64,000 bases of DNA, taken from positions 6,255,465 through 6,319,464 of the forward strand of contig OW818698.1 of the NCBI GenBank assembly GCA_942493375.1, in the 5' to 3' direction. The position numbers and the translations under genes were made by a program. Below the pieces are notes generated by a model. That model was given only the letters and a program-made list of their open reading frames with translations, was not told where the DNA came from and did not search any database. Origin of the DNA: Abditibacteriota bacterium (GTDB lineage: Bacteria > Armatimonadota > UBA5829). How positions within the stretch are numbered: the stretch's first letter is position 1; every line of letters begins with the position of its first letter. Of this stretch, positions 4,163 to 64,000 are shown one piece after another.

Positions 4163-5404
4163 TTACACGGTCACGTGGGCGAATTTCAGTTTTCCTGCCC
4201 TCAATATAATCCCATCACCGATCTCAACTCCGGCAGTGATGTCAGTTATCTTTGTTCCATCGACAGATACTCCGCCCTGCTGCACAAGCCTCTTGGCTTC
4301 ATTGCCTGATGGAGCCAGACCTGCAGATACAAGCAGCCTGACGATAACAATCTTGCCATCAGTCAGTAAACTTGAATCCAGCTTAACTTCCGGCATATCC
4401 TCTGGTATCTCTTTGTTGCTGAATACCCGTTCGAACTCTGCAACCGCATGCTGTCCCGCTTCCGCAGAGTGGTAGATTGCCACAATCTCTTTACCCAGCC
4501 GCTTCTTCATATCCATCGGATGCAACTTGCCTGCCTGGACATCACTCCACATCGTGTTTATCTCATCCAGAGGCACATCGGTGCACAGTTCATAGAACTT
4601 CGGCATCATTTCATCAGGCAGAGACATTATCTTTCCGAACATGTCTTTGGGATTTTCAGTAATACCTACATAGTTGCCCAATGACTTGGACATCTTCTGC
4701 ACGCCGTCCAAACCAGGCAGAATAGGCATAAACAGACCGATCTGCTCTTCCTGGTCATACTGGCCCTGCAGGTCCCGTCCCATCATTATGTTGAACTTCT
4801 GCTCAGTTCCACCGACTTCGACATCCGATTTAAGGAACACAGAGTCATAAGCCTGGCAGATAGGATACATCAGCTCGTGTACGCTGATAGGTTTCCCTTC
4901 AGCCAGCCTGGTTGCGAAATCGTCCCTTTCGAGGATTCTGGCAACAGTCACTTTAGCTGCTATCTTAATAACTTCCGCAAAACCCAAAGGTCCAAGCCAC
5001 TCGCTGTTAAATACTACCTTGGTCTTCTCAGGTATAAGTATCTTGCAGAACTGATCGTAATAAGTTTGAGCGTTGGCCTTGATCTCCTCAGTGCTCAGCT
5101 GAGGTCTGGTGACGCTGCGTCCGCTGGGGTCACCAATCGAAGCAGTAAAATCGCCAATAATTATATATACTTCGTGGCCCATGTCCTGGAACTGCCGCAT
5201 CTTCCGAAGGACAACCGCACTCCCAAGGTGAATATCCGGAGCAGTAGGGTCAAGTCCAAGCTTTATCCGAAGGGTTTTGCCCTCAGATTCGGCCTTCTTG
5301 AGTTTTACCCGCAGTCCTTCTTCAGGGACAATCTCTACTGTGCCACGCTTAATAAGCTGAAGCTGTTCATCTATAGTCAACTTGCTTTTCCAGCCTCCAT
5401 CCAT
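4163..5404 (-). CDS. tyrS: Tyrosyl-tRNA synthetase (with C-terminal S4-like domain)
   Basis: KMSKS-type motif KMSKSLGN, HIG-like region PTAPDIHLGS, and a C-terminal S4 domain (RLLVSAGLAPSGNEAKRLVQQGGVSVDG). I take the start as the Met at 5404. The upstream in-frame extension is low-complexity. Confidence 0.85.
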   Translation of the reverse strand: MDGGWKSKLTIDEQLQLIKRGTVEIVPEEGLRVKLKKAESEGKTLRIKLGLDPTAPDIHLGSAVVLRKMRQFQDMGHEVYIIIGDFTASIGDPSGRSVTRPQLSTEEIKANAQTYYDQFCKILIPEKTKVVFNSEWLGPLGFAEVIKIAAKVTVARILERDDFATRLAEGKPISVHELMYPICQAYDSVFLKSDVEVGGTEQKFNIMMGRDLQGQYDQEEQIGLFMPILPGLDGVQKMSKSLGNYVGITENPKDMFGKIMSLPDEMMPKFYELCTDVPLDEINTMWSDVQAGKLHPMDMKKRLGKEIVAIYHSAEAGQHAVAEFERVFSNKEIPEDMPEVKLDSSLLTDGKIVIVRLLVSAGLAPSGNEAKRLVQQGGVSVDGTKITDITAGVEIGDGIILRAGKLKFAHVTV

Positions 5405-5786
5405 ACCATTAGCCTGCATTAATAATGCGAGCTTGAACATAAACATCGTACCACGACAGGCCTCGGGAGTCAAACCAGCAGGCAGAGAGTGGAAGAGTGG
5501 GAGATGGGGGGACAGGGAGAGTGGGAGAAAACATATAAGTCCGATCCGTCTGATCCGACCAATCCGTCCGATAGAATCCCGGAAAGAAAACCAGCGCCAA
5601 TTCATCACACTTTTCCGGATCTATGCATCGGTATCAGAACGAAGGGGAGCACTAACAATAGTATATATTACAATCCGTCATCCCCGGAGTGCCGATGCCG
5701 ATGCACTGCCTGCCTACGCAGAGTTGCATTCATACAAGTTACAGTATTATTGTATGTATTATATGCTGTAAACACGGAGCTTATAA

Positions 5787-6842: not shown

Positions 6843-7052
6843 CACAACATAGGTGTAAAAGACTGAGTTTCTTTTGAACTCGGACAAGAGGTTGGGTAAA
6901 TGAAGCAAAGGGTATAGTAAAGAAGAATTGGCAGGCGTATTAAAAGTGCTCAGATTGTGCATTGTCTGAAAATGTAGTGGCTATTAATCATTCATACACT
7001 GCTTTATGAAGGAACTGCCTGTCAACGATTGTTGTTTGGAGTTATCGGAGTT

Positions 7053-7922
7053 ATGGTGTATCCTGAAAATAAAATCATTGCATTTGCCAAATCAACGTTG
7101 ATTTTGATCTGTGTTGTAGCTGCTATATTAGGAGCAGTTCATGTTATATTTCTGTTGACAAAACTGACAAGGCAGCTTGGCCAGATGACTGTCAAACTTG
7201 ATAAACTGGATACAATGACATCAGAGATCAATCGTCTGAATTCACGGTTGAATATGCTTGAAGAGACAAATAACAAGCTTTACCGCATGGAGAATTATAT
7301 GCGCTTTTTGCCGGTTTTAGCTGATGTTGGGAAAGTAGCAGTAGCGGAATCTTCAAGTGCAAATCGGAAGCTCGATATTACAAACGAAAGATTAGCAAAA
7401 ACGAACTCATTCATGCTTGATTCTACAAAAAAACTTAATGCTACTAACTATAATTTGCAGTTCACTAATGGCAATTTAAGGGGAATGCGAACCAACCTCT
7501 CCCATATGGGGGACTCGATGGACTTAATGGCTGCACAGCTTCCAGTGTTAAATGATATGAATCAACAACTCGCTCAGACCAATTTCAACCTTGGTAAGAC
7601 TACTGCAAGTATCGAACAGGTCACACGTGGGGTCGACAAGGTCAGTAGTGGGCTTGATGTAATGCAAATACAGCTAAAAGATATGGACACCAACTTCACG
7701 GTTCTTCCTGAGATGAAATTGAGTTTGGACAAGACTAATGAGATGTTAACAGCCACTACTCTAACCCTTCAGCCACTATGTCTGAGTCTGCCTGCATTAA
7801 ATGCATCAGTTCAACAGATGAATCTTACAACCCAGGATATGTCGAAAAGCTTGAAGAAACTTCCAAATCAGGGTGCGGTGGGTCTAGGAGTGCTGACAAG
7901 TGCGATACTTTTTAGAAAATAG
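7053..7922 (+). CDS. Membrane-anchored coiled-coil protein with Asn/Thr-rich heptad-like repeats (hypothetical)
   Basis: A single N-terminal TM helix (ILICVVAAILGAVHVIFLL) is followed by about 230 aa of TNxxLxx-type repeats. No recognisable catalytic motif. Confidence 0.45.
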   Translation: MVYPENKIIAFAKSTLILICVVAAILGAVHVIFLLTKLTRQLGQMTVKLDKLDTMTSEINRLNSRLNMLEETNNKLYRMENYMRFLPVLADVGKVAVAESSSANRKLDITNERLAKTNSFMLDSTKKLNATNYNLQFTNGNLRGMRTNLSHMGDSMDLMAAQLPVLNDMNQQLAQTNFNLGKTTASIEQVTRGVDKVSSGLDVMQIQLKDMDTNFTVLPEMKLSLDKTNEMLTATTLTLQPLCLSLPALNASVQQMNLTTQDMSKSLKKLPNQGAVGLGVLTSAILFRK

Positions 7923-8067
7923 CTGCCAGGTAGTCCCTGCTGCCGCACAATAGCGAAGCTTAGTGCATAAAACGGATTGGCTTTAAGTACATTTTAAAAT
8001 GATCAGCATGTATGGAATGGTATACTATATATACTCGTGAGATACCTTACTGTTTGATTGCATACTA

Positions 8068-8172
8068 ACCCGTTTTATTCACCAAGCTTCGCTTTTGTCC
8101 GGCAGTTGGGACAAAAGCTGAGAGTGTAAATGCATAGCATTTACACCGTCAGTCATGAATAATGCGGGCTAA
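8068..8172 (-). repeat. MITE/REP-like nested palindromic element, family 1 copy (reverse orientation, with an internal palindromic insertion)
   Basis: Outer arms CCCGTTTTATTCACCAAGC ... GTCATGAATAATGCGGGC match the arms of the copies at 28637, 31215 and 63631. The inner palindrome is CTTTTGTCC/GGACAAAAG. Confidence 0.6.
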
Positions 8173-8397: not shown

Positions 8398-8455
8398 TCT
8401 AGCCCGTATTATTCACCAAGCAACGCTTTAGTTCCTCAGGATGGCAATGTTCACA
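8398..8455. repeat. Partial family-1 MITE arm fused to a family-2-like motif (cctcaggatgg)
   Basis: ctagcccgtattattcaccaagcaacgcttt followed by agttcctcaggatggca. Confidence 0.4.
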
Positions 8456-8949
8456 TGAAACTGAACTCATACCATATACCGCATCAATCTTAGTGATGAT
8501 TATTATTCTATATAAGTAGAAATGCGTGTAAACACGATGAGATTGAAGCACATATACATTAGCTTCCGAGGAAATGCATTTATACAACCTGTTATAATGC
8601 GCGAGCTGCAGAATAAGTGCGGGCATAACAAGCGTCGTCGCACAAAACATCCTGCATCAACTGCAACAATTGAACAATCAGTAAAAACAGTGTAAGTAAA
8701 GAGGTGTATCTGCATATATACTGGTAATGATGTCATATGTGTGCCGCGTAATCACACAAAACATCACCATATCCATCCTAAGTAAACGATGATTTTGCAA
8801 AGTAGGTAATACTACTTATAATGCTTTTTCGTGCTAATGCCTAAAATCAGTTATGTATAACACTCTATTTTCCGATATATAAAATAGCTATCCGCAAATA
8901 GAGAAAAATGGAACGAATAACAAAATATAAAAGACCAGAAGGTGGAAGC

Positions 8950-11900
8950 ATGCGAATAAACTCTATCAAACTACTGCCGAGAGTGCTCGGTGCATTTGTG
9001 ATCGTGGCTTTGATTGCCATTACGATCGGAATGGTAGGCCTGAAGACAGTTACAGAGATCGGTGGGCAACGCCTTCCGAGTATAGTTGCATTGCAGGACA
9101 TGACTCTTGCCCAGCAGAAAGTGTGGGTAGCAGAGCGTGGACTTATCAACCCGAGGATGATGGATCCCAAAGTACGTGCTGCCCAATACAAATATATTGA
9201 AGGTGCTTGGACGCTTGCTGATGATGCGGTCAAGGTATATGAGCCATCTGCTAAATCTAAAGAAGAAGAAGCAATTTGGAAAGAGCTCAAGCCGCAGTGG
9301 GATGAATGGAGAAAGTCACATGAGGCTGTCGTCCAGTTGGCCCGGCAGAAAGATGAGTTACTTGCTTCTGGAGCAACCACACAGAGTCCGAAGATACTTG
9401 CACTTGACCTCGAGACATTTAATGCATCTATGGAGGCAAGAGGCAAGGCATTATCTTCTATTGATTGTATAAACAAGATTCTCGTAATTAACAAAAAAGT
9501 AGCTTCGGCTTCTGCATTAACTGGCCGACGCAATATGATTACCGCAATGGCAGCCGGTATGCTCCTTGCCTTAGCTTTTGGAGTTATAATCGCCCTCAGC
9601 GTCTCCAAGCCGGTTGTAGGTATCAAAAATGTTGCTGATCAACTTGCTCTCGGAGAAGTAGACGTAAACCTGACTGTTAGCGGTAAAGATGAGATAGCGG
9701 ACCTCACGCGAGCTATGGAACAGATGGTTGCTGGGATAAAAGTTACCGTTGCAGCAGCCGGACAGATATCCAAAGGCGATATGTCTACTTATGTTGAACC
9801 CAGGTCTGACAAGGATGTATTAGCCATCGCAATGAACGGTGTCGTAGAGTCTGTGCGTGGACTGGTGGATGAGGCCGGAATGCTGAGTAAAGCAGCAGTA
9901 GACGGACGCCTGGACACCAGAGGAGAGGCTGATAAGTTTGAGGGTGGATTCCGCGAGATCATCGTCGGAGTCAATGACACACTCGATGCTGTCATTGGAC
10001 CACTCAATGTCGCTGCAGAGTACGTTGAGCGTATATCCAATGGCGACATCCCTGCCAGAATCACCGATAGTTACAACGGTGACTTCAATGAGATAAAGAA
10101 TAACCTGAATAAATGTATTGATGCCGTAAATGCAATGACTGCTGACGCTAACATGCTGAGCGTAGCAGCAGTAGAGGGTAAACTGGATACCCGTGCAGAC
10201 GCAACAAAGCATCAGGGTGACTTCAGAAAAATAATCTCCGGAGTCAATGACACTCTTGATTCAGTCATAGGACCATTAAATGTTGCTGCCGAATATATGG
10301 AGCGCATTGCCAATGGAGACATTCCTGCAAAGATCACCGATGAATACAATGGTGACTTCAACGAGATCAAGAATAACCTGAACAAGTGTATTGATCAGAT
10401 CAGTATGCTGGTTGACGAAGTTGGTGTAGTCATTGGTGCAGCCAAAGATGGCAAACTGTCTATGAGATCAGATACCGAAAGAGTTCAGGGTGTATACCGC
10501 AAACTTCTGCGTGGACTCAACGAGACCCTGGATTCAGTAGTCGGACCATTGAATGTAGCTGCAGAGCACATTGAACGCATCTCAAATGGAGATATCCCCT
10601 CACCGATCACCGATGTATACAATGGTGATTTCAACGAGATCAAGAACAGCCTGAATAAGTGCATAGGCGCAGTCAACCTGCTGGTTGCTGATGCTGGTAT
10701 GCTGAGTGAAGCTGCCATAGAGGGCAAACTCGATACCCGAGCTGATGCATCTAAGCACGGTGGTGATTTCCGTAAGGTTGTTACTGGAGTCAATGGAACC
10801 CTTGATGCAGTAATTGGACCACTCAATGTTGCTGCTGAGTATGTTGAGCGAATTTCCAATGGAGACATCCCTGGGAAAATCACCGATAGTTACAATGGTG
10901 ATTTCAACGAGATCAAGAACAACCTGAACAAGTGTATAGAATCGGTTAATGCGATGGCAGCCGATGCTGTAATGCTCAGCGAAGCCGCTGTAGAGGGAAA
11001 ACTGGCCACCAGAGCTGATGCATCAAAGCACCAGGGTGATTTCCGTAAAATCATTCAGGGAGTTAACGATACACTTGATTCAGTTGTTGGTCCTTTGAAT
11101 GTAGCAGCAGATTATGTTGACAGAATATCCAATGGGAATATACCTTCCAGTATAACCGACAACTATAATGGTGACTTCAACACCCTGAAGAATAACTTGA
11201 ACAAATGTATTGCAGCAGTTAATGCGATGGTTGCAGATGCTGGTATGTTGAGTATAGCTGCCGTAGAAGGTAAATTGGATACAAGAGCTGATGCAAGTAA
11301 ACATCAGGGAGACTTCAAAGCGATTGTTGAAGGAGTCAATCAGACTCTGGATTCGATAGTTGGGAACCTGGAAGCAATACCGACTCCGATCCAGTTTATG
11401 GACAAGGATTACAATATCCAGTATATCAACAAGACAGGAGCAGCTCTACTCGGTAAGAGTAAAACTGAACTCACTAAATACAAGTGTGCGGATGTCTGGA
11501 ATACATCAAAGTGCCGAACAAAAGACTGTCCATGTTCGAAAGCGATGGAGCTTAACAGCAGTTACGAATGTGACAATGATACAATGGTTGGCGACAAGCG
11601 ATTTGACATACATTGTGCAGCTGCTCCTCTTAAGGATAAAGCTGGTAACACAGTTGGGTCATTCGAGTTCGTAATTGATCAGTCGGATATAGTCAATGCC
11701 GGCAGAGTAATGCAGAAGATCGGCCAGTATCAGGACTTGGAAGTGGAGAAACTCAATTCTGCGTTGGCACAATTTGCACAAAATGATTTGACAGTAAGTG
11801 TTGAAACAGGGACTGCAGATGCTGATACAGCGGAGACTAAAGGAAAATTCGACAAGATAGCCGATGCTTTCAATGATTGTGTAACAGCGATGGGCAGTGT

Positions 11901-13059
11901 TATTGGCCAGGTAGCCGAGGCTGCAAACAAAGTAGCTGATTCTACATTAGCCCTTTCTAAAACTGCAACTGATGTTGGGAATTCCTCTCAGCAGATATCT
12001 TTGACCGTAGACCAGGTAGCTACAGGCTCCCAGGAACAGTCAAGAACCGTGCAGAACAGTGCCGAAGCTATGGAACAGCTGATGAGAGCTATCGGTGAAG
12101 TTGCTGCTGGTGCTCAGAGTCAGGCTAAACAGGTAGATCAGACTGTTGGACTTGTCCAGCAGATCACTGCCGCCATTGATGAAGTTGCCAAGAATAGCAG
12201 CACTGTTGCTCAGGCCAGCCGAGAAGTCAACGAAGTCGCCATCAAGGGCGGATTGCAGGTAGCCAAGTCTGGTGAAGGCATGGTCCGCATCAAAGATGCT
12301 ACAGATAAAGTCGGAACAATGGTCAAGCAGCTGGGTGATAGCAGCAAACAGATAGGGGCCATCGTCGAGACTATCGATGATATCGCTGAGCAGACAAACC
12401 TGTTGGCTCTAAACGCTGCAATCGAAGCAGCCAGGGCAGGGGAGCATGGTAAAGGATTCGCAGTAGTTGCAGATGAAGTCCGCAAGCTTGCCGAAAGGTC
12501 CAGTAAGGCCACTGGTGAGATCGCAGACCTGATTGGGACTATGCAGAATATGATCAACTCAGCTGTCGATGCGATGAGCATCGGGAGTAAAGAGGTCAGT
12601 GAGGGCACAGTGCTCTCAGCTGAAGCAGGGGATGCTCTGAAGAATATCCAGGGAGCCGTTCAGGGAATCGTATCTCAGATAGACAATATGGCTGCTGCTG
12701 CTCAGCAGATGTCTGCATCGAGCACGGAAGTCGTAAGAGCCATAGAGAACGTATCTGCAGTAACCGAAGAGACTACCGCAGCTGCCGAAGAGATGGCTGC
12801 ATCGAGTGCTGAGGTCTCCCGTCAGATAGAGCAGGTTGCTGCAGTCAGCGAAGAGAACGCTGCTGCTGCTGAGGAAGTCAGTGCCACAACCCAGGAGCAG
12901 ACCGCTGCTGCTGAGGAAATGACCGCAGGCACAGAAGACCTGTCCAACATGGCTGAAGACCTGCAGGAACTGGTCTCTGCATTCAAGACCAACACAGTTG
13001 GGAACACCCTGCAGAGCATGACAAAACAATCAACCAACAAACGCCGCAGAGCGGCATAA
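8950..13059 (+). CDS. Methyl-accepting chemotaxis protein with 2 TM helices, a periplasmic sensor domain, a poly-HAMP array (~12 HAMP units), a Cys-rich PAS domain, a further HAMP domain and an MCP signalling domain
   Basis: TM1 at ~res 20-45 and TM2 at ~200-225, then a canonical HAMP. Six tandem 91-aa (273-nt) repeats each contain two helix-connector-helix HAMP-like units ([41 protein letters not shown]). The PAS domain carries C-x7-C-x4-C-x-C. The MCP core is [38 protein letters not shown] take the start as the Met at 8950 (GAAGGTGGAAGCATG RBS); the ORF is open from 8908. Confidence 0.85.
9840..11390 (+). repeat. Intragenic tandem repeat, 273-bp period x ~5.7 copies (encodes the poly-HAMP array)
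   Basis: ggtgacttcaa[ct]gagat[ac]aagaa[tc]aacctgaa[tc]aa[ag]tg recurs at 10078, 10351, 10624, 10894 and 11170. Confidence 0.85.
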
Positions 13060-13103: not shown

Positions 13104-13285
13104 CATAATTCACTTGTAGAGAAGTGGATCACTAACACGGAGGACCACTACTTCCCCTTGGAGAATGGTACAACCCAATTCCCCCTTTGAAGGGGGGTAG
13201 GGGGATGTGAATCTAGGAGATGGTTGGCAATCTCGGATGGTTATTTTCAACATCCAACCTCCAACATCCAAACACGGAGCGAGAT

Positions 13286-13786
13286 ATGAGCGAGACTAAT
13301 GAAATAGGATATGAGCAATTCGAGCAACTCGTGGTATTCCAGTTGGCGCATGAGTACTACGGCGTTGATATAGGGGCTGTAAGCACAATTATCCGGATGC
13401 AGGATTTAACTGCAGTTCCTCAGACCCCCCACTATGTTGAGGGTGTCATCAACCTTAGAGGCAGCATTATCCCGGTGATCGATCTGAGAAAGCGCTTTCA
13501 CCTTGCCCAGGAACCAACAACCAAGTCCAGCCGGATAGTTGTAGTTGAAGCCAATGGAGCCATGGTAGGCATGATCGTAGACGCGGTCGCTGAAACCCTT
13601 AGGATTTCGACTGACAATATAGAACCACCGTCCTGCGTAATAGCCTCAGTAGAGTCCGAATACCTGAGGGGAATAGCCAAACAGGGTGACAGACTGGTTA
13701 TTCTGCTGGACATCAACCTGGTAATGGGAGCCCACGACCTGGACATCCTCACCCGCCAGAAACATAATTCAGCAAAAGCTGCATAG
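13286..13786 (+). CDS. cheW: Chemotaxis coupling protein CheW
   Basis: About 165 aa with a CheW fold signature (FQLAHEYYGVDIGAVSTII...VINLRGSIIPVIDLRKRF...GMIVDAV). The start is placed at MSETNEIGYEQ, which has a GGAGCGAGATATG RBS. Confidence 0.8.
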   Translation: MSETNEIGYEQFEQLVVFQLAHEYYGVDIGAVSTIIRMQDLTAVPQTPHYVEGVINLRGSIIPVIDLRKRFHLAQEPTTKSSRIVVVEANGAMVGMIVDAVAETLRISTDNIEPPSCVIASVESEYLRGIAKQGDRLVILLDINLVMGAHDLDILTRQKHNSAKAA

Positions 13787-22237: not shown

Positions 22238-25200
22238 TTATGACAGACTCTTGCTGGATGGTTGGAGGCTCTCTTCTATTTGGTGATCTGGTCTCTTTTT
22301 ACCGTTACCACCGCTCCATCGATCCAGATGTTTTCGGGCATGGGCCTTAGTATGCTCAAGCGCCATATATACTGCCGGCAAGACAAGCAGTGTGAAGAGT
22401 GTTGATGTTACAAGGCCACCAACCATGACTATTGCCAGAGGCTTTTCGATTTCTGCGCCAACGCCTCCGCTGAGAAGAATGGGCAGTAGTCCGAGAGCTG
22501 CGCAGGATGCGGTCATTAGTTTTGGCCTCAACCTTTGAACACTTGCAAGCCGAATCGCTTGTTCTCTGGTATATCCTTCGGCGATGAAGTCACTGGTCTG
22601 GGTAAGTAGAACCAGACTGTTTTGGACTGCAATACCAAACAGTGCTATAAACCCTACTGCTGATGATACATTCAGACTCTCACCGGCAATGAGCAATGAT
22701 GCAACGCCTCCGATGAAAGCACTTGGGACAGTGGCCAGGATTATACCAGCATGGCTTGCTGAGTTGAGCGCCAGAAAGAGAAGCATAAACACTACTGCCA
22801 ATGCTATCACTGTTGCCAGCATTAGCGATTTCATTGCCCTCTGCTGGTTCTGGAATTGTCCGCCAAATACTACATAGTAATCAGCCGGAAGCTCAATGCT
22901 CTTGAGATCCTGTTTGATATCGGTAACTACACTTCCGAGGTCTCGTCCCTGTATGCTTGCATCTATGCTGAAGCGTCGGTTCATTGCTTCACGCATTATT
23001 ACATTGGGCCCTTCAGAGAGTGTTACACTTGCTACCTGTGAGAGTGGAATCTGGCCACCAGACGGCATATCCACCATCAGATTTTTGATAGAGTCGATAT
23101 CTCCACGCATCTCATCAGGGAACCTTACAAATACACCATAGCTGCGCTGGTTCTTCCAGACTTGTGTGAGTTCCTCTCCGCCGATAGCCAGCCTGACAAT
23201 CTCGGAGACCTGTCCTACGGATACACCATATCTGGCTGCTGCCTGCCGGTCGATTTGTATTTGAACTTGTGGTATACCGGCTGTCTGGTCCATCTTTACA
23301 TCTGCTACTCCACGAGTCTTTAGCATGATCTCTTCGATCTGTTTGCCTTTTTGTGCAAGCACCTGAATGTCAGGGCCGAATAACTTGACCTGCAGTGGAG
23401 CAGGAGTGCCTTCCAAACTTTCGTTAATCTTGTTTTGTAATGGTTGAGTAAATGCTGTTGCGACGCCCGGAATGCGTTCGATTTGCTCCCTGATCTCAGA
23501 GAGTATCTGATCAGCCGGTTTAGTGAGTTTATCCCTCGATTTTAGGTTGACGAACATTTCCCCCGAGTTTACCGGCAGCACGCATCCGATAGCTCTTTCA
23601 GAACGGCCATTCCGTCTGATAACCTCCAGGATATTGGGGTTCTTAATCAATATTTGTTCGATCTGAGTGGTAATGCGGTTATTCTCTTCAAGAGATGTTT
23701 CAGCTGGTGTGCTGGTAGAGATAAACCATGAGCCTTCATCAAGACGGGGCATAAAGTCGCGTCCAAGCATCATCACGCCTAACGCTGTTGGTATCAGCAG
23801 TCCAAAAGCTATACCAATAACGATCCATCGATGATGAAGTGCATATTCCAGAGCTGGAACATAGCCTTTCTTTATCCACTTGACGAACTTTACCTCGCCT
23901 TCAGCATCCTCTCCAGCTTTGGGGTGCAGTAGTCGGTTTGCCAGTATTGGAGTAAACGTGAGGGAGAGAACAAGCGCTACAAGCATTGCCGCAGCAACAG
24001 TGATGGCGAGTGGACGGAACAGAAGCCCTTCTATCCCACCCATCAGGAATAGTGGCAGGAACACAGCAATGATGATCAGCGTAGCGAAAGCGATAGGACG
24101 GCCGACCTCAATGGAAGCCTTTCGAGCAACTCTCTCCTTTGCCTGTGGGTCTTCCATATCTTCGCGGTTCTTGTGGAAGCGGTGGTATATGTTTTCGACC
24201 ATAATGATAGATGCGTCTACCATTATTCCGACAGCAATTGCGAGTCCACCCAGAGACATTGTATTTAGACCAATGCCGAATTGCTGCATGATTATGCCGG
24301 CAATCATGACTGAAAGCGGTAAGGAAGCAGCTACAATAATGGTGCTTCTGAAGTGACCCAGGAACACCAGCAGTACAACTATGACCAACACAGCGCCAAT
24401 AAGAATAGCCCTGGTAACACTGGTAAGTGAGTCCTTAATCAGATGGGTCTGATCATAATATGGGCTGAGACGGACACCTTTGGGCAGTGTCGGTCGCATA
24501 TCTTCAATGGCTTTTTCTATGCCTTCAACCACTTTGACCGTGTCAGCGTTGGGTTGCTTGATGACGAGGGCAACGACGGTCTCCTTGCCATTTTTACTGG
24601 CGATACCTCTTCGGATAGCAGTGCTTTCCTCTACATCAGCAATATCCCCCAGGAAGAGTGGAACGCCATTGTTTTCGGCAACCATCGTGTCTTTGATATC
24701 ATCAAGTGATGTGAAACGACCGATACCACGGACGGTGTATTCGGTAGGGCCGGTGCTTATAAAACCGCCTGCTGCATTTTCATTACCTCCCTTGACAGCA
24801 TCCTCGATGTCTGCAAGTTTGACTTTATACGTCCGCAGTTTATATGGGTCGATGGTTACCCTGTACTGCTTCATGCTTCCGCCCATGTTTAATACTTCGG
24901 CGACTCCGGGAACTGTCAGCAGATTATAGCGCACCTGCCATTCTGCGATTTCACGCATCTCTGCAGCCGGTAGATCACCCTCTATTGCTAGTTCATAGAC
25001 TTCAGCGAGTCTTGTTGTTGCACTACTCAAAGTGGGCGGTTCTGTCCCTGGAGGAAGCTGTCCGGCTACCTGTGACATACGCTCAGTCACAAATTGACGG
25101 GCTCTCCAGAACTCGGTTTCTATGTCGAATTCTACTACGACCGATGAGAGTCCCTGTGTGGTCTGGCTCCTGATCCTGCGGACACCAGGGAGCCCGTTCA

Positions 25201-25438
25201 TTGCGGACTCCATTGGCCGGGTGATCATCATCTCTATCTCTTCAGCGGCCATTGCTTCATTTTCGGTCACTATTGTAAAGACCGGAATAGTAATATCCGG
25301 ATACACATTCCTGGGCATCTGCTGGTAAGCTATAATGCCAAAGACAAGCGCAAGCGCTACCAGCATCATCACAATCGCCTTCTGCTTGAAGGAGGAATGG
25401 ATGATTTTATCAATCAGACTTCCGTGAGTTGAATCCAT
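22238..25438 (-). CDS. RND heavy-metal efflux pump, CzcA/CusA family (HME-RND)
   Basis: 1066 aa, 12 TM helices. N-terminal signature AIVMMLVALALVFGIIAYQQMP...DIETEFWRARQFV is typical of CzcA/CusA. Confidence 0.85.
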   Translation of the reverse strand: MDSTHGSLIDKIIHSSFKQKAIVMMLVALALVFGIIAYQQMPRNVYPDITIPVFTIVTENEAMAAEEIEMMITRPMESAMNGLPGVRRIRSQTTQGLSSVVVEFDIETEFWRARQFVTERMSQVAGQLPPGTEPPTLSSATTRLAEVYELAIEGDLPAAEMREIAEWQVRYNLLTVPGVAEVLNMGGSMKQYRVTIDPYKLRTYKVKLADIEDAVKGGNENAAGGFISTGPTEYTVRGIGRFTSLDDIKDTMVAENNGVPLFLGDIADVEESTAIRRGIASKNGKETVVALVIKQPNADTVKVVEGIEKAIEDMRPTLPKGVRLSPYYDQTHLIKDSLTSVTRAILIGAVLVIVVLLVFLGHFRSTIIVAASLPLSVMIAGIIMQQFGIGLNTMSLGGLAIAVGIMVDASIIMVENIYHRFHKNREDMEDPQAKERVARKASIEVGRPIAFATLIIIAVFLPLFLMGGIEGLLFRPLAITVAAAMLVALVLSLTFTPILANRLLHPKAGEDAEGEVKFVKWIKKGYVPALEYALHHRWIVIGIAFGLLIPTALGVMMLGRDFMPRLDEGSWFISTSTPAETSLEENNRITTQIEQILIKNPNILEVIRRNGRSERAIGCVLPVNSGEMFVNLKSRDKLTKPADQILSEIREQIERIPGVATAFTQPLQNKINESLEGTPAPLQVKLFGPDIQVLAQKGKQIEEIMLKTRGVADVKMDQTAGIPQVQIQIDRQAAARYGVSVGQVSEIVRLAIGGEELTQVWKNQRSYGVFVRFPDEMRGDIDSIKNLMVDMPSGGQIPLSQVASVTLSEGPNVIMREAMNRRFSIDASIQGRDLGSVVTDIKQDLKSIELPADYYVVFGGQFQNQQRAMKSLMLATVIALAVVFMLLFLALNSASHAGIILATVPSAFIGGVASLLIAGESLNVSSAVGFIALFGIAVQNSLVLLTQTSDFIAEGYTREQAIRLASVQRLRPKLMTASCAALGLLPILLSGGVGAEIEKPLAIVMVGGLVTSTLFTLLVLPAVYMALEHTKAHARKHLDRWSGGNGKKRPDHQIEESLQPSSKSLS

Positions 25439-25447
25439 AGTTTCCTC

Positions 25448-26998
25448 CTAATGTGCGTCGGCGCATCCGGCGCTCAGTTGTCCTGAACCCATTGCGGTCT
25501 TGAGTTGAAACGCGCCAACAGTCACTACTTCGGTGTTTGGAGAAATACCACTCAGTACCTCAATGCGGTCTCCATGAACAGGTCCTGTTGTTACTTCGGC
25601 TCTGTCATATTCACCACAGGCGCTTGGTCCGTTTTTTATATCCTCCGGGCATTCGGTGCAAGTTGTAAAGACAATCTTTTTGCCCGCATCGTCAAGAATA
25701 GCTTGCCTGGGAATAAGTAATGTGCTGCCCCTTTTGCTGGTAATGAGTGATATCCTGGCGAACATTTCACCTCTGAGCATCCCTTGTGTATTTGAGACAA
25801 CACATCGAATCTTGGCTGTGCGGGAATCTGAACTCAGGAAATCATCGATGGAATCCACCCGACCACGAAATACCTTGTTGGGATATGTGTCCACACGGAT
25901 TTCGACAGGTTGTCCTTTTCGTACACGAGCAAGGTCTTTTTCGTATATGTCTGATTCAATCCACACTTGATTGAGGTTTGCTACGGTGAAGAGTGGGCTT
26001 TCCGGAGATGCCATCTCCCCGATATTGGTGTGGCGTGAGATTATGCGTCCGGAAACCGGTGACACGACAGTGATGTTTTCACCTGTGCCGGACGGACTAG
26101 CGCCAAGGATTTTGATCCTGTCTATAGCTGCCTGCACATCAATGCGTGCTCCAGCGATATCATTTTTTACAGTCTGTAGAGACCGCAGGTCAATAGCTTT
26201 ACTGTGGTAGACTTTTTCTTCTCTAGCAAGATATTGTTTTGATATCTCAACTTTTGACTGCGCTTTTTCGATTCTGGCTTCTGCTTGAGTTACTTTTGAC
26301 TGCGCTGTATCTACCAGAGCTGAGTCTCTTTTATATTCAGCCTCAGCGGTTTCTAAATCGTGTTTGGATACTATTTTGCTTACATACAACTCTTTTGTTC
26401 TATCGAGCCTGGATTTACATTGAAGAAGTTCACTCTGCTCACGGACGAGTTCACTCTTAGCCTGTGCGAGCTCACTTTTAGCATCTGCAAGCTCTCCCTG
26501 TGCTGTTAGGCTCTCAGAACGTGCTTCTTCAACCGGCCTTGTACTATTTGCACCCAGTTCAACGATGCGCAACTCACGTGCATAATTGTTCTCAGCTGCT
26601 TTGAGTTTTGAAAGAGCCTGGCGGTATTGTGATCTTGCTTCTGCTAGTTCGATACTGGAAATTACCGCCAGCACTTGTCCGCGGCTGACTATGTCACCAA
26701 TAGTCCCACGGGCGGAGACTACTTTACCTGCAATCCTTGGTGTTATTTTAACCATACGGTCAGGAGGCACTGTCACTTTTCCGGTTGCGGAGATGATATC
26801 CCATCCCTCTCCCATTACGGCAACGGCCGTTTGAAGCCCGGCAATCTTTTCCTTTTCAGGCTGGCTGGCGTCTGTCACTTCATTTTCGGTATGTGTAGTT
26901 TCTATAGGGAGCGACTTGGACTTATTCATTACTGCATATGTAATACCCACCGAAACCAGGGCTACTATTATAACTGTGACCGGTGTTTTTATATTCAT
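25448..26998 (-). CDS. RND membrane fusion (periplasmic adaptor) protein, CzcB/HlyD family, with a long coiled-coil hairpin and a Cys-containing C-terminal extension
   Basis: The order is lipoyl/beta-barrel/MP domains. The coiled-coil segment is AELAEARSQYRQALSKLKAAENNYAREL.... 9 nt separate it from the RND gene. Confidence 0.8.
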   Translation of the reverse strand: MNIKTPVTVIIVALVSVGITYAVMNKSKSLPIETTHTENEVTDASQPEKEKIAGLQTAVAVMGEGWDIISATGKVTVPPDRMVKITPRIAGKVVSARGTIGDIVSRGQVLAVISSIELAEARSQYRQALSKLKAAENNYARELRIVELGANSTRPVEEARSESLTAQGELADAKSELAQAKSELVREQSELLQCKSRLDRTKELYVSKIVSKHDLETAEAEYKRDSALVDTAQSKVTQAEARIEKAQSKVEISKQYLAREEKVYHSKAIDLRSLQTVKNDIAGARIDVQAAIDRIKILGASPSGTGENITVVSPVSGRIISRHTNIGEMASPESPLFTVANLNQVWIESDIYEKDLARVRKGQPVEIRVDTYPNKVFRGRVDSIDDFLSSDSRTAKIRCVVSNTQGMLRGEMFARISLITSKRGSTLLIPRQAILDDAGKKIVFTTCTECPEDIKNGPSACGEYDRAEVTTGPVHGDRIEVLSGISPNTEVVTVGAFQLKTAMGSGQLSAGCADAH

Positions 26999-28253
26999 TT
27001 CTTAACCTCCGTTGCGGTAGTATTGGTTAATCCAGACCCTGTGGCCCACTCAAGCTGTGCGATTGACTTCGCATGGTCTGCCAGCGCTGTGAAATATTCT
27101 GTTTTGATACTACGAAGGGTTCGTTGAGCTTCCAATACTTCCAGGTAACTGGTTGCGCCTTTTTCATAACCTGTTTGAGCCATCTGCGCGAGTTCATCGG
27201 ATTTATCCATAATGCCCCCTTGATACTCGCGTACTTTATCTGTGAAGATGTCTCCACTTGAAGGATGGCTTGCTCTACATCTAGTGATATATCATTTTTA
27301 ACAGATTCAAGCTGCTTCTCATGGCTTTGCGTGGTGATTGCAGCCTGTTTCTTGTCTGCCTTTACAGATCCCCAGTCGAATATTGGGAGAGTAATGACGA
27401 GTGCGATCCCACAGTTGGTATTTGAATTAAATGTCTCGGTTCTGGCTTGAACGGCAATATCCGGAGAGTTTTTGATCTGTATTGCGCGAATTTCTTGTCT
27501 GCTTGCATCTGCTTGTGCTTTAGATGAAGCGATTTCGGGCCTTTGAGTATGTGCAAGGGTGCGGAGCTGTTCTCGGTCGATAGGTGTGGTTGAGAATGTG
27601 AGTCGGTCTATTGCTGTTAACTCCTGATCCATTGAGCGGTTCATTAGTGAATTCAGGCTGGCTTTTGCCTGAGTTAATGCTAGTTGTGCCTGTGAGAGTT
27701 CCTGTCTGGATTTGGCATGTTCAACATCAGTTTTGATAAGTTGTGAACCAGGGACTGTTCCGACATCATACTGTTTCTGAACTGCCGCACGGAGAGTCTC
27801 TAGATATACTAGATTTGCCTGGTTTAATTGGACTAGTTCCTGTGCTTTTGCGATGTCCCAATATGCTTGCTTTACGCGCAGGATCAGGTCTTGCCTGATG
27901 GACGCTGCATCGAAAGATGCAGCAGTTGCCTGGAATGCAGCTATCTCCTCACGTGTCTTTCTTGCACCATTGAGTTCCAATGGTTGGGATATAAATATTG
28001 CTGAATCCGACCCAGCGGTTCCAATTAGATTTGGCGCAACACTGATTTCAGGATTAGTTAAGGCTCTTGCGCCTTTTATAGTTTGTTTTGCAGCATCAGC
28101 AGATAGCATTCCGGATGCAACTGCGGGATTGTGTTTCAGTGCTAATTCGACGGACTGACTTAGTGACAATTCATCTGCTGTTACAGTATTACTGGACAGA
28201 AACAGGCAGACGAATGCCATCAGCACCCATCGAATAGGGTTCATAGTAACCAT
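26995..28253 (-). pseudogene. TolC-like outer-membrane efflux protein (CzcC-like), apparently disrupted by a -1 frameshift near 27205-27215
   Basis: The 408-aa ORF carries the OEP N-terminus and first repeat, then turns to nonsense after ...IKYASIKGAL. The 71-aa ORF in another frame carries the OEP C-terminal helix MDKSDELAQMAQTGYEKGATSYLEVLEAQRTLRSIK. Confidence 0.6.
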
Positions 28254-63630: not shown

Positions 63631-63711
63631 CTAGCCCGCATTATTCATGATTGACTCGCTTTCGCCCCTACTGCTGGTCGAAAGCAGTGCTTGGTGAATA
63701 AAGCGGGCTAG
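63631..63711. repeat. MITE/REP-like nested palindromic element, family 1
   Basis: CTAGCCCGCATTATTCATGATTGACTCGCTTTCGCCCCTACTGCTGGTCGAAAGCAGTGCTTGGTGAATAAAGCGGGCTAG, which has perfect 11-bp terminal inverted repeats. Confidence 0.75.
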
Positions 63712-64000
63712 TTATGACGGCTCAAATGGCCGTCAAAACCTGATGGTTTCTTAGTAGCCATTTGCTGACCGGCTGATCAACACATGATCTGATGTATATT
63801 ACAATTCTTTATCTTGAAATTCCTGCTGTCAGGAAGTACGTAGTGAGTTCGACATATTCAATTCTATCCTGATTATGATATACTCTCGCTAGTAATCTAT
63901 GCTGGGGCTCATTATGTTGTGAGTTCTGTCTATATATTCCACTTTGAAAGGTGATTATCAATGCTTCAACCATACGATCTACGCTGTGAATATGCCGAGA

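Follow-up and report, generated by a model that had tools for sequence, protein, structure and literature searches.

What does a chemoreceptor sense when a periplasmic domain and a cysteine-bearing PAS domain are joined in one chain by a long series of HAMP domains, and how would the two inputs be combined? The question is raised by a gene at 8950..13059 on the forward strand of a 64,000-nucleotide stretch of an Abditibacteriota bacterium genome (contig OW818698.1, positions 6,255,465 to 6,319,464; the whole stretch is called the window below). A sequence-only reading of the window had described a poly-HAMP chemoreceptor with a candidate metal or redox site in its PAS domain. The observation as such is real and lies far beyond chance. 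Of what it described, the gene, the HAMP domains and the cysteines were confirmed and several details were not; of its interpretation, the poly-HAMP assignment and the metal or redox candidate were supported, while the unusual length and recent expansion of the array were not. Our best explanation of the whole, which we consider rather likely, is a two-input serial receptor with a poly-HAMP relay and a cofactor-bearing PAS domain. The poly-HAMP part adds little in itself, as it is a typical, rather short member of a kind for which a Pfam model and related crystal structures exist. More useful as a lead, and the only part with discovery potential, is the cysteine-bearing PAS family, whose hundreds of clusters belong mostly to chemoreceptors.

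Domain organization of the receptor

The gene lies in a single long open reading frame (ORF) at 8908..13059 on the forward strand, which encodes 1383 residues if read from the ATG at 8908. The ATG at 8950 is the likely start codon of the receptor gene: a Shine-Dalgarno sequence, GAAGGTGGA, stands 5 nt upstream of it, and none is found before the alternative in-frame ATG at 8908. An identical NCBI protein, P0004, has 1369 residues, which therefore also places the start at 8950; together with the ORF listing, it bears out the gene limits of 8950-13059 given earlier. Residue numbers in this text refer to the 1383-aa ORF, and those of the 1369-aa protein are obtained by subtracting 14.

The product is a transmembrane methyl-accepting chemotaxis protein (MCP). 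It is composed of a first transmembrane helix (TM1), a periplasmic four-helix bundle, a second transmembrane helix (TM2), two canonical HAMP domains, an array of 11 HAMP units of two alternating types (A and B), the PAS domain, a further HAMP domain and the MCP signalling domain. This amounts to 14 HAMP domains, of which 13 are consecutive. The two hydrophobic segments flank the four-helix-bundle domain, and the protein is therefore read as a transmembrane chemoreceptor with a periplasmic sensor and a cytoplasmic part of ~1150 residues. The features are as follows.

8950..13059, forward strand: receptor gene, 1369 aa (ORF listing, Pfam domain set, 100% match to P0004)
8977..9039, forward strand: TM1, approximate (Kyte-Doolittle hydrophobic window)
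9040..9531, forward strand: periplasmic ligand-binding domain 4HB_MCP_1 (Pfam PF12729 at residues 25-156, 30.3 bits against a cut-off of 27; between hydrophobic segments)
9532..9600, forward strand: TM2, approximate (hydrophobic window from aa 209)
9601..9756, forward strand: HAMP1, canonical (Pfam HAMP at residues 228-276, 37.6 bits when scanned singly)
9757..9858, forward strand: HAMP2, canonical type (profile of relatives against Af1503; its final helix continues into the first array unit)
9859..11361, forward strand: poly-HAMP array A1 B1 A2 B2 A3 B3 A4 B4 A5 B5 A6 (unit profiles)
11362..11697, forward strand: PAS domain with cysteine motif (placed at the B-unit start position, with GNLEAIP replacing GPLNVAA; Pfam PAS_4 at residues 821-924)
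11485..11535, forward strand: cysteine motif C-x8-C-x4-C-x-C, candidate iron-sulfur (Fe-S) or metal ligands (translation; invariant in alignment A1)
11698..11916, forward strand: linker helix followed by HAMP14, B-like, with a connector 8 aa longer (hhalign against the B profile)
11917..12957, forward strand: MCP kinase-control (signalling) domain (Pfam MCPsignal, residues 1133-1286)

Ahead of the array, a single canonical HAMP domain had been described, and a second was found between HAMP1 and the array. This HAMP2 segment (~residues 283-333) gave no Pfam match when scanned singly; a profile built from relatives matched the Af1503 HAMP structures (E 1e-4) and the B-unit profile (83% probability). 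The HAMP domain and MCP module that had been placed downstream of the PAS domain are both present. HAMP14, as profile A4, aligned with the B profile at 93.9% probability (hhalign, E 1.5e-7) and matched the CpxA HAMP weakly. The signalling domain matched MCPsignal (PF00015) with 154.2 bits against a cut-off of 34.6, includes the conserved 19-residue hairpin tip, and contains four motifs resembling [ASTG][ASTG]xx[EQ][EQ]xx[ASTG][ASTG] methylation sites.

The cysteine motif and the family that carries it

Translation gives the motif as C-x8-C-x4-C-x-C over 17 residues (nt 11485-11535); the first interval had earlier been read as x7, in an 18-residue stretch that corresponds to nt 11482-11535. The four cysteines were invariant, together with two threonines and one methionine, when the domain was aligned with seven homologues down to 35% identity (alignment A1). 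Two more cysteines, C888 and C903, are restricted to a close clade, and the other sequences have TDAHP near C888. A profile search that covered all of 1.84 billion representatives returned 672 clusters at a threshold of E<=1e-30 and 3,972 when this was relaxed to E<=1e-10. Of the 149 top representatives, 125 have the strict four-cysteine motif, with the consensus CYD[LH]FKT[SP][DH]CxTxxC[AR]C, which agrees with the conservation of the cysteines expected earlier. At least 90 of these 149 are MCPs according to a strict hairpin pattern. When the PAS profile was compared with species-representative genomes, the best match was 54-56% identical.

The domain begins exactly at the start position of a B unit (IVGNLEAIP as against VIGPLNVAA) and ends with DQS or DQT, after which a helix and a HAMP domain follow. 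A or B HAMP units also occur in 97 of the 125 motif-bearing proteins, and 87 of 162 motif-bearing PAS domains stand directly after an A unit. The PAS domain takes the position of a B unit and behaves as an A-PAS-HAMP cassette, which occurs once or several times per array.

Several variants were seen within the family. A three-cysteine subtype, C-x8-C-x4-C-x-[VLIAT], is common (e.g. P0126, P0128 and P0131, and P0064 and P0088 among the close relatives); the sampled domains comprised 112 of the three-cysteine and 179 of the four-cysteine type, and both types were found together in 57 proteins. Some proteins have three to five cysteine-type PAS domains in tandem. P0125 (4,799 aa) and P0175 (3,417 aa) contain 31 and 19 PAS-like stretches, respectively, that match the profile with the cysteine motif absent.

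The AlphaFold2 model of the PAS domain had a predicted local distance difference test score (pLDDT) of 91, and the cysteine loop was confidently placed though without secondary structure. In this model, the first cysteine is located at the start of E-alpha and the second in the loop behind this helix, and the remaining two lie where F-alpha begins. Fold searches retrieved generic PAS domains only, at 10-19% identity (NifL, LOV, DosP, NtrB). By sequence, the solved domain nearest to this one is the PAS domain of Aer2, to which the family is related. PDB searches yielded no solved structure of the cysteine-bearing family, literature searches found neither a published characterisation of the four-cysteine PAS family nor an Fe-S-based taxis receptor, a search with the motif string was empty, and a July 2026 review of aerotaxis receptors mentions no iron-sulfur or cysteine-based receptor.

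The named hosts of the family belong mostly to anaerobic lineages, namely Bacillota metagenome-assembled genomes (MAGs), Desulfurivibrionaceae and other Deltaproteobacteria, Methanomassiliicoccales, Methanobacteriota, Ignavibacteria, Melioribacteraceae, Spirochaetota and Omnitrophota. We tentatively propose, with somewhat less than even confidence, that the four- and three-cysteine PAS domains form a widespread, uncharacterised class of Fe-S sensors in chemoreceptors. Such a class would be the Fe-S counterpart of the heme-PAS of Aer2, would be arranged as an A-HAMP/PAS/HAMP cassette, and would supply redox, O2, NO or sulfide input to taxis, mostly for anaerobic bacteria and archaea. If Fe-S binding holds true, the family would represent a new cofactor class for taxis receptors and would help to explain how anaerobes sense redox conditions and oxygen for movement.

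What the cysteines may bind

The metal or redox site that had been suggested from the window is a reasonable candidate, since none of the four cysteines varies among homologues, and the PAS domain probably holds an Fe-S cluster or a metal ion. An Fe-S cluster ranks first among the options, followed by zinc or another thiophilic metal; neither heme nor a metal-free thiol switch is likely. For binding of an Fe-S cluster by the four cysteines, we regard the case as evenly balanced.

Three PAS domains with Fe-S clusters are documented, and the closest spacing among them is that of OrpR from Desulfovibrio vulgaris Hildenborough, which has a redox-sensitive [4Fe-4S] cluster, cysteines C52, C61 and C65, and Asp or Glu at position 54 (PMC8359166). 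Compared by the published motif only (C-x8-C-x3-C), the two proteins share the C-x8-C spacing and an acidic residue at C+2, and the three-cysteine variants of the present family resemble the three-cysteine set of OrpR. Of the 179 four-cysteine domains in the family, 165 have Asp, Asn or Glu at C+2. OrpR differs from the chemoreceptor described here in its role as a sigma-54 activator, in the interval before its third cysteine (x3 instead of x4) and in the absence of a C-x-C pair. In NreB, the PAS domain of Staphylococcus carnosus holds a [4Fe-4S] cluster with the motif CX2CX11CX2C, and that of Bacillus licheniformis a [2Fe-2S] cluster with three cysteines and a labile sulfur ligand (PMC13478379). 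A PAS domain with three or four cysteines, which in NreB hold a sensory Fe-S cluster, is common to both systems. In contrast to NreB, the motifs CX2CX11C and CX2CX11CX2C are absent here, and NreB is a histidine kinase from Firmicute hosts; PDB searches with the PAS domain gave no significant match to NreB. By analogy with NreB, the three-cysteine subtype would fit sensory Fe-S clusters that have one exchangeable or non-cysteine ligand.

The four cysteines might instead bind Zn(II) structurally, as a knuckle in the E-alpha/F-alpha loop, or sense Zn, Cu(I), Cd or As(III); the receptor would then respond either by way of its periplasmic domain alone or to metal stress. A tetrahedral site would agree equally well with a confidently modelled loop and with four invariant cysteines in a span of 17 residues, and C-x-C pairs are known from Cu(I)/Zn sites such as that of CopY and from As(III) sites such as that of ArsR. 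However, ~38% of the sampled domains have V, L, I, T or A in place of the fourth cysteine, often alongside a four-cysteine domain of the same protein, which disfavours an obligatory Zn(Cys)4 site. The usual CxxC pairs of zinc knuckles are also absent, and the location of the domain in the signal path, at an Aer2-like position, suggests sensing over scaffolding. We consider such a metal site unlikely, if still worth keeping in mind.

A metal-free thiol/disulfide or persulfide switch, responding to cytoplasmic redox state or to reactive sulfur or oxygen species, would be improbable. The invariant cysteines lie near each other in sequence, and the close clade has C888 and C903 in addition, both of which would favour it; yet the strict spacing, with conserved Thr and Asp around it in hundreds of clusters, looks more like a ligand set, and the literature that we found contains no precedent in PAS chemoreceptors. 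More doubtful again is that the domain binds heme b like Aer2, with the cysteines being incidental. The Aer2 heme-PAS is indeed the closest solved sequence (E 2e-4), but this match covers only the N-terminal 39 residues (profile residues 2-39) and ends ahead of the cofactor-binding helices. Likewise, the NCBIfam Aer2 model (NF041847) aligns over PAS-HAMP-MCP, but with 324 bits against a cut-off of 1200, which is far below the Aer2 equivalog threshold. In the E-alpha/F-alpha region, the invariant residues of the family consensus are the cysteines, and no histidine is invariant there.

HAMP units of the array

Tandem Repeats Finder detected a period of 273 bp at 9967-11295 (score 974, 4.9 copies, 71% matches), the same period as reported from the window before. 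In the protein, the repeats occupy residues 318-772 as five complete 91-aa modules and residues 773-818 as a half module, as opposed to the six modules counted earlier. Each module consists of a non-canonical A unit of 46 aa and a canonical B unit of 45 aa, so the array has 6 A and 5 B units, 11 in total, which alternate strictly and keep an exact, indel-free period of 91 aa (273 nt). A glycine is found at each A-to-B junction (V[IV]GPLN) and ahead of the PAS domain (IVGNLE), and at the B-to-A junctions of some units only (ADAGML and DEVGVV versus ADANML and DAVML).

By four independent profile tests, the array units are HAMP domains, and unit-by-unit comparison with HAMP_2, Aer2 and AskA upholds the earlier claim to this effect. 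Pfam HAMP_2 (PF18947) scored 546 bits in total over six stretches, with a cut-off of 24.3. Single B units matched positions 20-67 of this model at 68-80 bits and canonical HAMP weakly, and in A units positions 1-24 covered the second helix only; HAMP_2 is therefore a model of a whole B unit together with the end of the A unit before it. PF18947 stands for the poly-HAMP arrays associated with chemoreceptors, for which Dunin-Horkawicz and Lupas (2010) may also be cited. An A profile built from 38 diverse A units matched two crystal structures of the AskA poly-HAMP, 9TRJ and 9TRK (E 0.012-0.043), besides HAMP4 of Aer2 (3VOL residues 143-182, E 1e-4), and the B profile matched Aer2 HAMP5 (E 2.3e-5) and AskA 9TRK (E 3e-5). 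Compared with each other by hhalign, the A and B profiles aligned at 92.5% probability over the connector and second helix. An AlphaFold2 monomer model of residues 225-499 displayed periodic helices with loops of 9-15 residues at a pLDDT of 42. With this low confidence, the packing into four-helix bundles rests on homology.

Length and age of the array

Units were counted with hidden Markov models built from the window in the 120 best homologues, whose ranking by total score favours long arrays. These homologues have 5-21 A units and 3-21 B units, or 8-42 in total, with 21+21 in P0001. On these counts, the 11-unit array is short for its family and not exceptional, and its description as unusually long is not borne out. 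The same 6A+5B arrangement followed by a PAS domain was found in P0121 (>90% identity, from a JGI metagenome) and in P0027 and P0123 (71%). In six relatives that lack the PAS domain, two of them paralogues from the same genome, the array is uniformly 7A+7B and the protein 1319-1338 aa long. A constraint on rod length may explain why the PAS form (1369 aa) and the PAS-less form (~1320 aa) are of similar length.

The modules differ considerably from each other. Pairwise identity is 57-78% for full modules at the protein level and 58-76% at the DNA level, with 55-74% for the DNA of A units and 68-84% for that of B units. Third codon positions are 38-65% identical between modules, and the longest exact run common to two modules is 9-31 nt, exceeding 18 nt in one pair only. 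The synonymous sites have thus diverged; the claim of near-identical DNA repeats is wrong, and that of a recent expansion is unsupported. Rather, the repeats are old, and selection on the protein maintains their similarity.

The window and P0121 were compared by colinear blastn alignment and by a fixed-offset comparison. Modules 1-4 were closest to the module at the same position in P0121, and the same applied to modules 1 and 4 in P0027 and P0018, so the array is older than these splits. The contig of P0121 (L062) is colinear with the window over the whole gene with a length difference of 3 nt, and P0027 was assembled on three contigs, which makes an assembly artefact very unlikely. By these comparisons, the array is old and stable in length. 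Unit B5 (aa 728-772) is a standard B unit in the window and of a divergent type in P0121, and the nucleotide identity between the window and L062 steps from ~85% (5') to 94-95% (3') around 11081-11210. Single units or segments can therefore be exchanged, and the B5 difference looks like recombination or unit replacement inside the array.

A recent intragenic amplification, or an assembly artefact, with variable copy number is the contrary explanation of the array, and one that had been raised in the form of ongoing recombination and a variable length. It could draw on the period of exactly 273 bp, on the B5 type that differs from the closest relative and shows units to be replaceable, and on the near-identical di-HAMP modules within many bacterial arrays, which are consistent with an intragenic origin generally (PMC13446029). 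The divergence of the modules at DNA level (55-84%) and at third codon positions speaks against it, as do the equal unit count in P0121, P0027 and P0123, which come from independent assemblies, and the uniform 7A+7B of the PAS-less relatives. This explanation is already largely refuted, and we give it hardly any credence; neither collapse nor expansion during assembly is supported.

Relation to known receptors and proposed mode of action

The poly-HAMP arrays of chemoreceptors consist of di-HAMP modules, in which a non-canonical group A domain is combined with a canonical group B domain (Coles et al. 2026, PMC13446029). According to this work, the arrays can comprise dozens of domains, 31 HAMPs in one case, and have conserved junction glycines; soluble receptors are stressed, and an upstream input domain is typically missing. 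As a mechanism, it was proposed that alternating HAMP types reverse helix rotation (a rotation toggle), with the second HAMP of Aer2 belonging to group A (PMC13446029). Judged by its profiles, the present array is of this described chemoreceptor kind, in agreement with the Aer2-like poly-HAMP type named earlier. It shares the alternating A/B modules of fixed length upstream of a methyl-accepting domain and the A-to-B glycine, and its A units are of the sequence type of Aer2 HAMP2 and HAMP4. Unlike those arrays, it is preceded by a periplasmic sensor, two transmembrane helices and two canonical HAMP domains, and it is interrupted by a PAS domain before the MCP domain. A membrane-anchored form, recognized by hydrophobic segments upstream, was found in 59 of 121 sampled relatives and is therefore common in sequence data.

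With Aer2 of Pseudomonas aeruginosa and Vibrio, the receptor has in common an in-line PAS domain that is flanked by HAMP domains and precedes the MCP domain, and the DQS/DQT junction. Aer2 differs in being soluble, with five diverse HAMPs and heme b, whereas the present receptor is transmembrane and has 14 HAMPs with a regular array; where Aer2 has heme-binding helices, it has the four-cysteine motif.

We propose that the receptor forms a homodimer in which the four-helix bundles of the HAMP array would be stacked to make up a rigid rod. Along this rod, the sense of helix rotation would be reversed in each A unit and restored in each B unit, and in this way the periplasmic signal would be relayed to the PAS domain, which would contribute a cytoplasmic input of its own. 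The combined signal would then pass through the DQS junction and the last HAMP domain to the CheA-controlling tip, and CheW from the adjacent gene would couple the receptor to a CheA encoded elsewhere. An Fe-S PAS domain would act as a sensor of redox state, O2 or a related small molecule, which would make the protein an Aer2-like receptor with a cluster in the place of heme.

Several points weigh against this proposal. We know of no receptor in which travel of a periplasmic signal through 13 HAMP domains has been established, and the N-terminal HAMPs of Aer2 are not its signal source. The monomer model of the rod is of low confidence, as given above. As to the cofactor, it cannot be established from sequence, and the motif is identical to that of no characterised Fe-S PAS domain (NreB, OrpR). 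Some hosts of the family, moreover, are no obvious anaerobes (Hyphomicrobiales, Rhodocyclaceae and a Chitinophaga MAG). The receptor nevertheless offers a natural poly-HAMP case with a defined upstream input, in which signal passage through long HAMP chains could be tested.

Flanking regions, genome and host

Two further features of the region were noted.

8794..8822, forward strand: candidate sigma-70-type promoter, TTTGCA-17-TATAAT (consensus scan, 10/12)
13220..13786, forward strand: cheW, 160 nt downstream of the receptor gene (Pfam CheW, 136 bits)

The promoter assignment is a weak one: scanning the region upstream of the receptor gene for promoter consensus gave no enrichment over shuffles, and the sequence might act as a promoter at best. 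Over the 178 nt directly preceding the gene, conservation in the relative L062 is 88%. The non-coding stretch of ~1 kb 5' of the gene contains a dispersed small repeat that would form a long hairpin at 7933-8112 (arms of 46 nt, 85% complementary); partial copies lie at 8399-8439, at 63632-63712 and in L062:1555-1599. The sole Rfam match on the receptor flanks, mir-2319 on both strands, was rejected as spurious and corresponds to the palindrome of this repeat. Further upstream, at 7029-7922 on the forward strand, an ORF of 297 aa combines a hydrophobic segment at the N-terminus with a coiled-coil-like repetitive sequence rich in 'TN..L'; it had no Pfam match and is not kept upstream of the receptor in L062.

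As noted from the window before, cheW is adjacent, and neither cheA nor cheY was detected in the window: tblastn of the window detected no CheY-like receiver, second CheW-like domain or second MCP, no cheA was among the window ORFs of >=500 aa, and cheR and cheB were likewise not found in the window. The MCP-cheW pair was considered as a conserved unit and rejected, as the P0027 locus has no cheW nearby. A DUF711 gene neighbours the receptor, and the large ORFs of the window encode, among others, an RND efflux system with an outer-membrane factor, an ABC transporter and an acyl-CoA-type ligase. The efflux pump and its outer-membrane factor (22238-28253, reverse strand) indicate a diderm cell. 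The best named relatives of the tyrosyl-tRNA synthetase (TyrRS; 4163-5608, reverse strand) are all Armatimonadota MAGs, at 64-74% identity.

The same genome (8,198,536-bp contig) encodes at least four more poly-HAMP chemoreceptors, P0031, P0034, P0041 and P0107. Two of these have 7A+7B and ~1320 aa, and one has 13+13; P0107 contains two cysteine-bearing PAS domains with identical motifs. In the relative that carries P0027, the locus (L063, L064) lies among glycoside hydrolases and near a gene for a glycyl-radical (PFL-like) enzyme, which suggests an anaerobic or facultative host.

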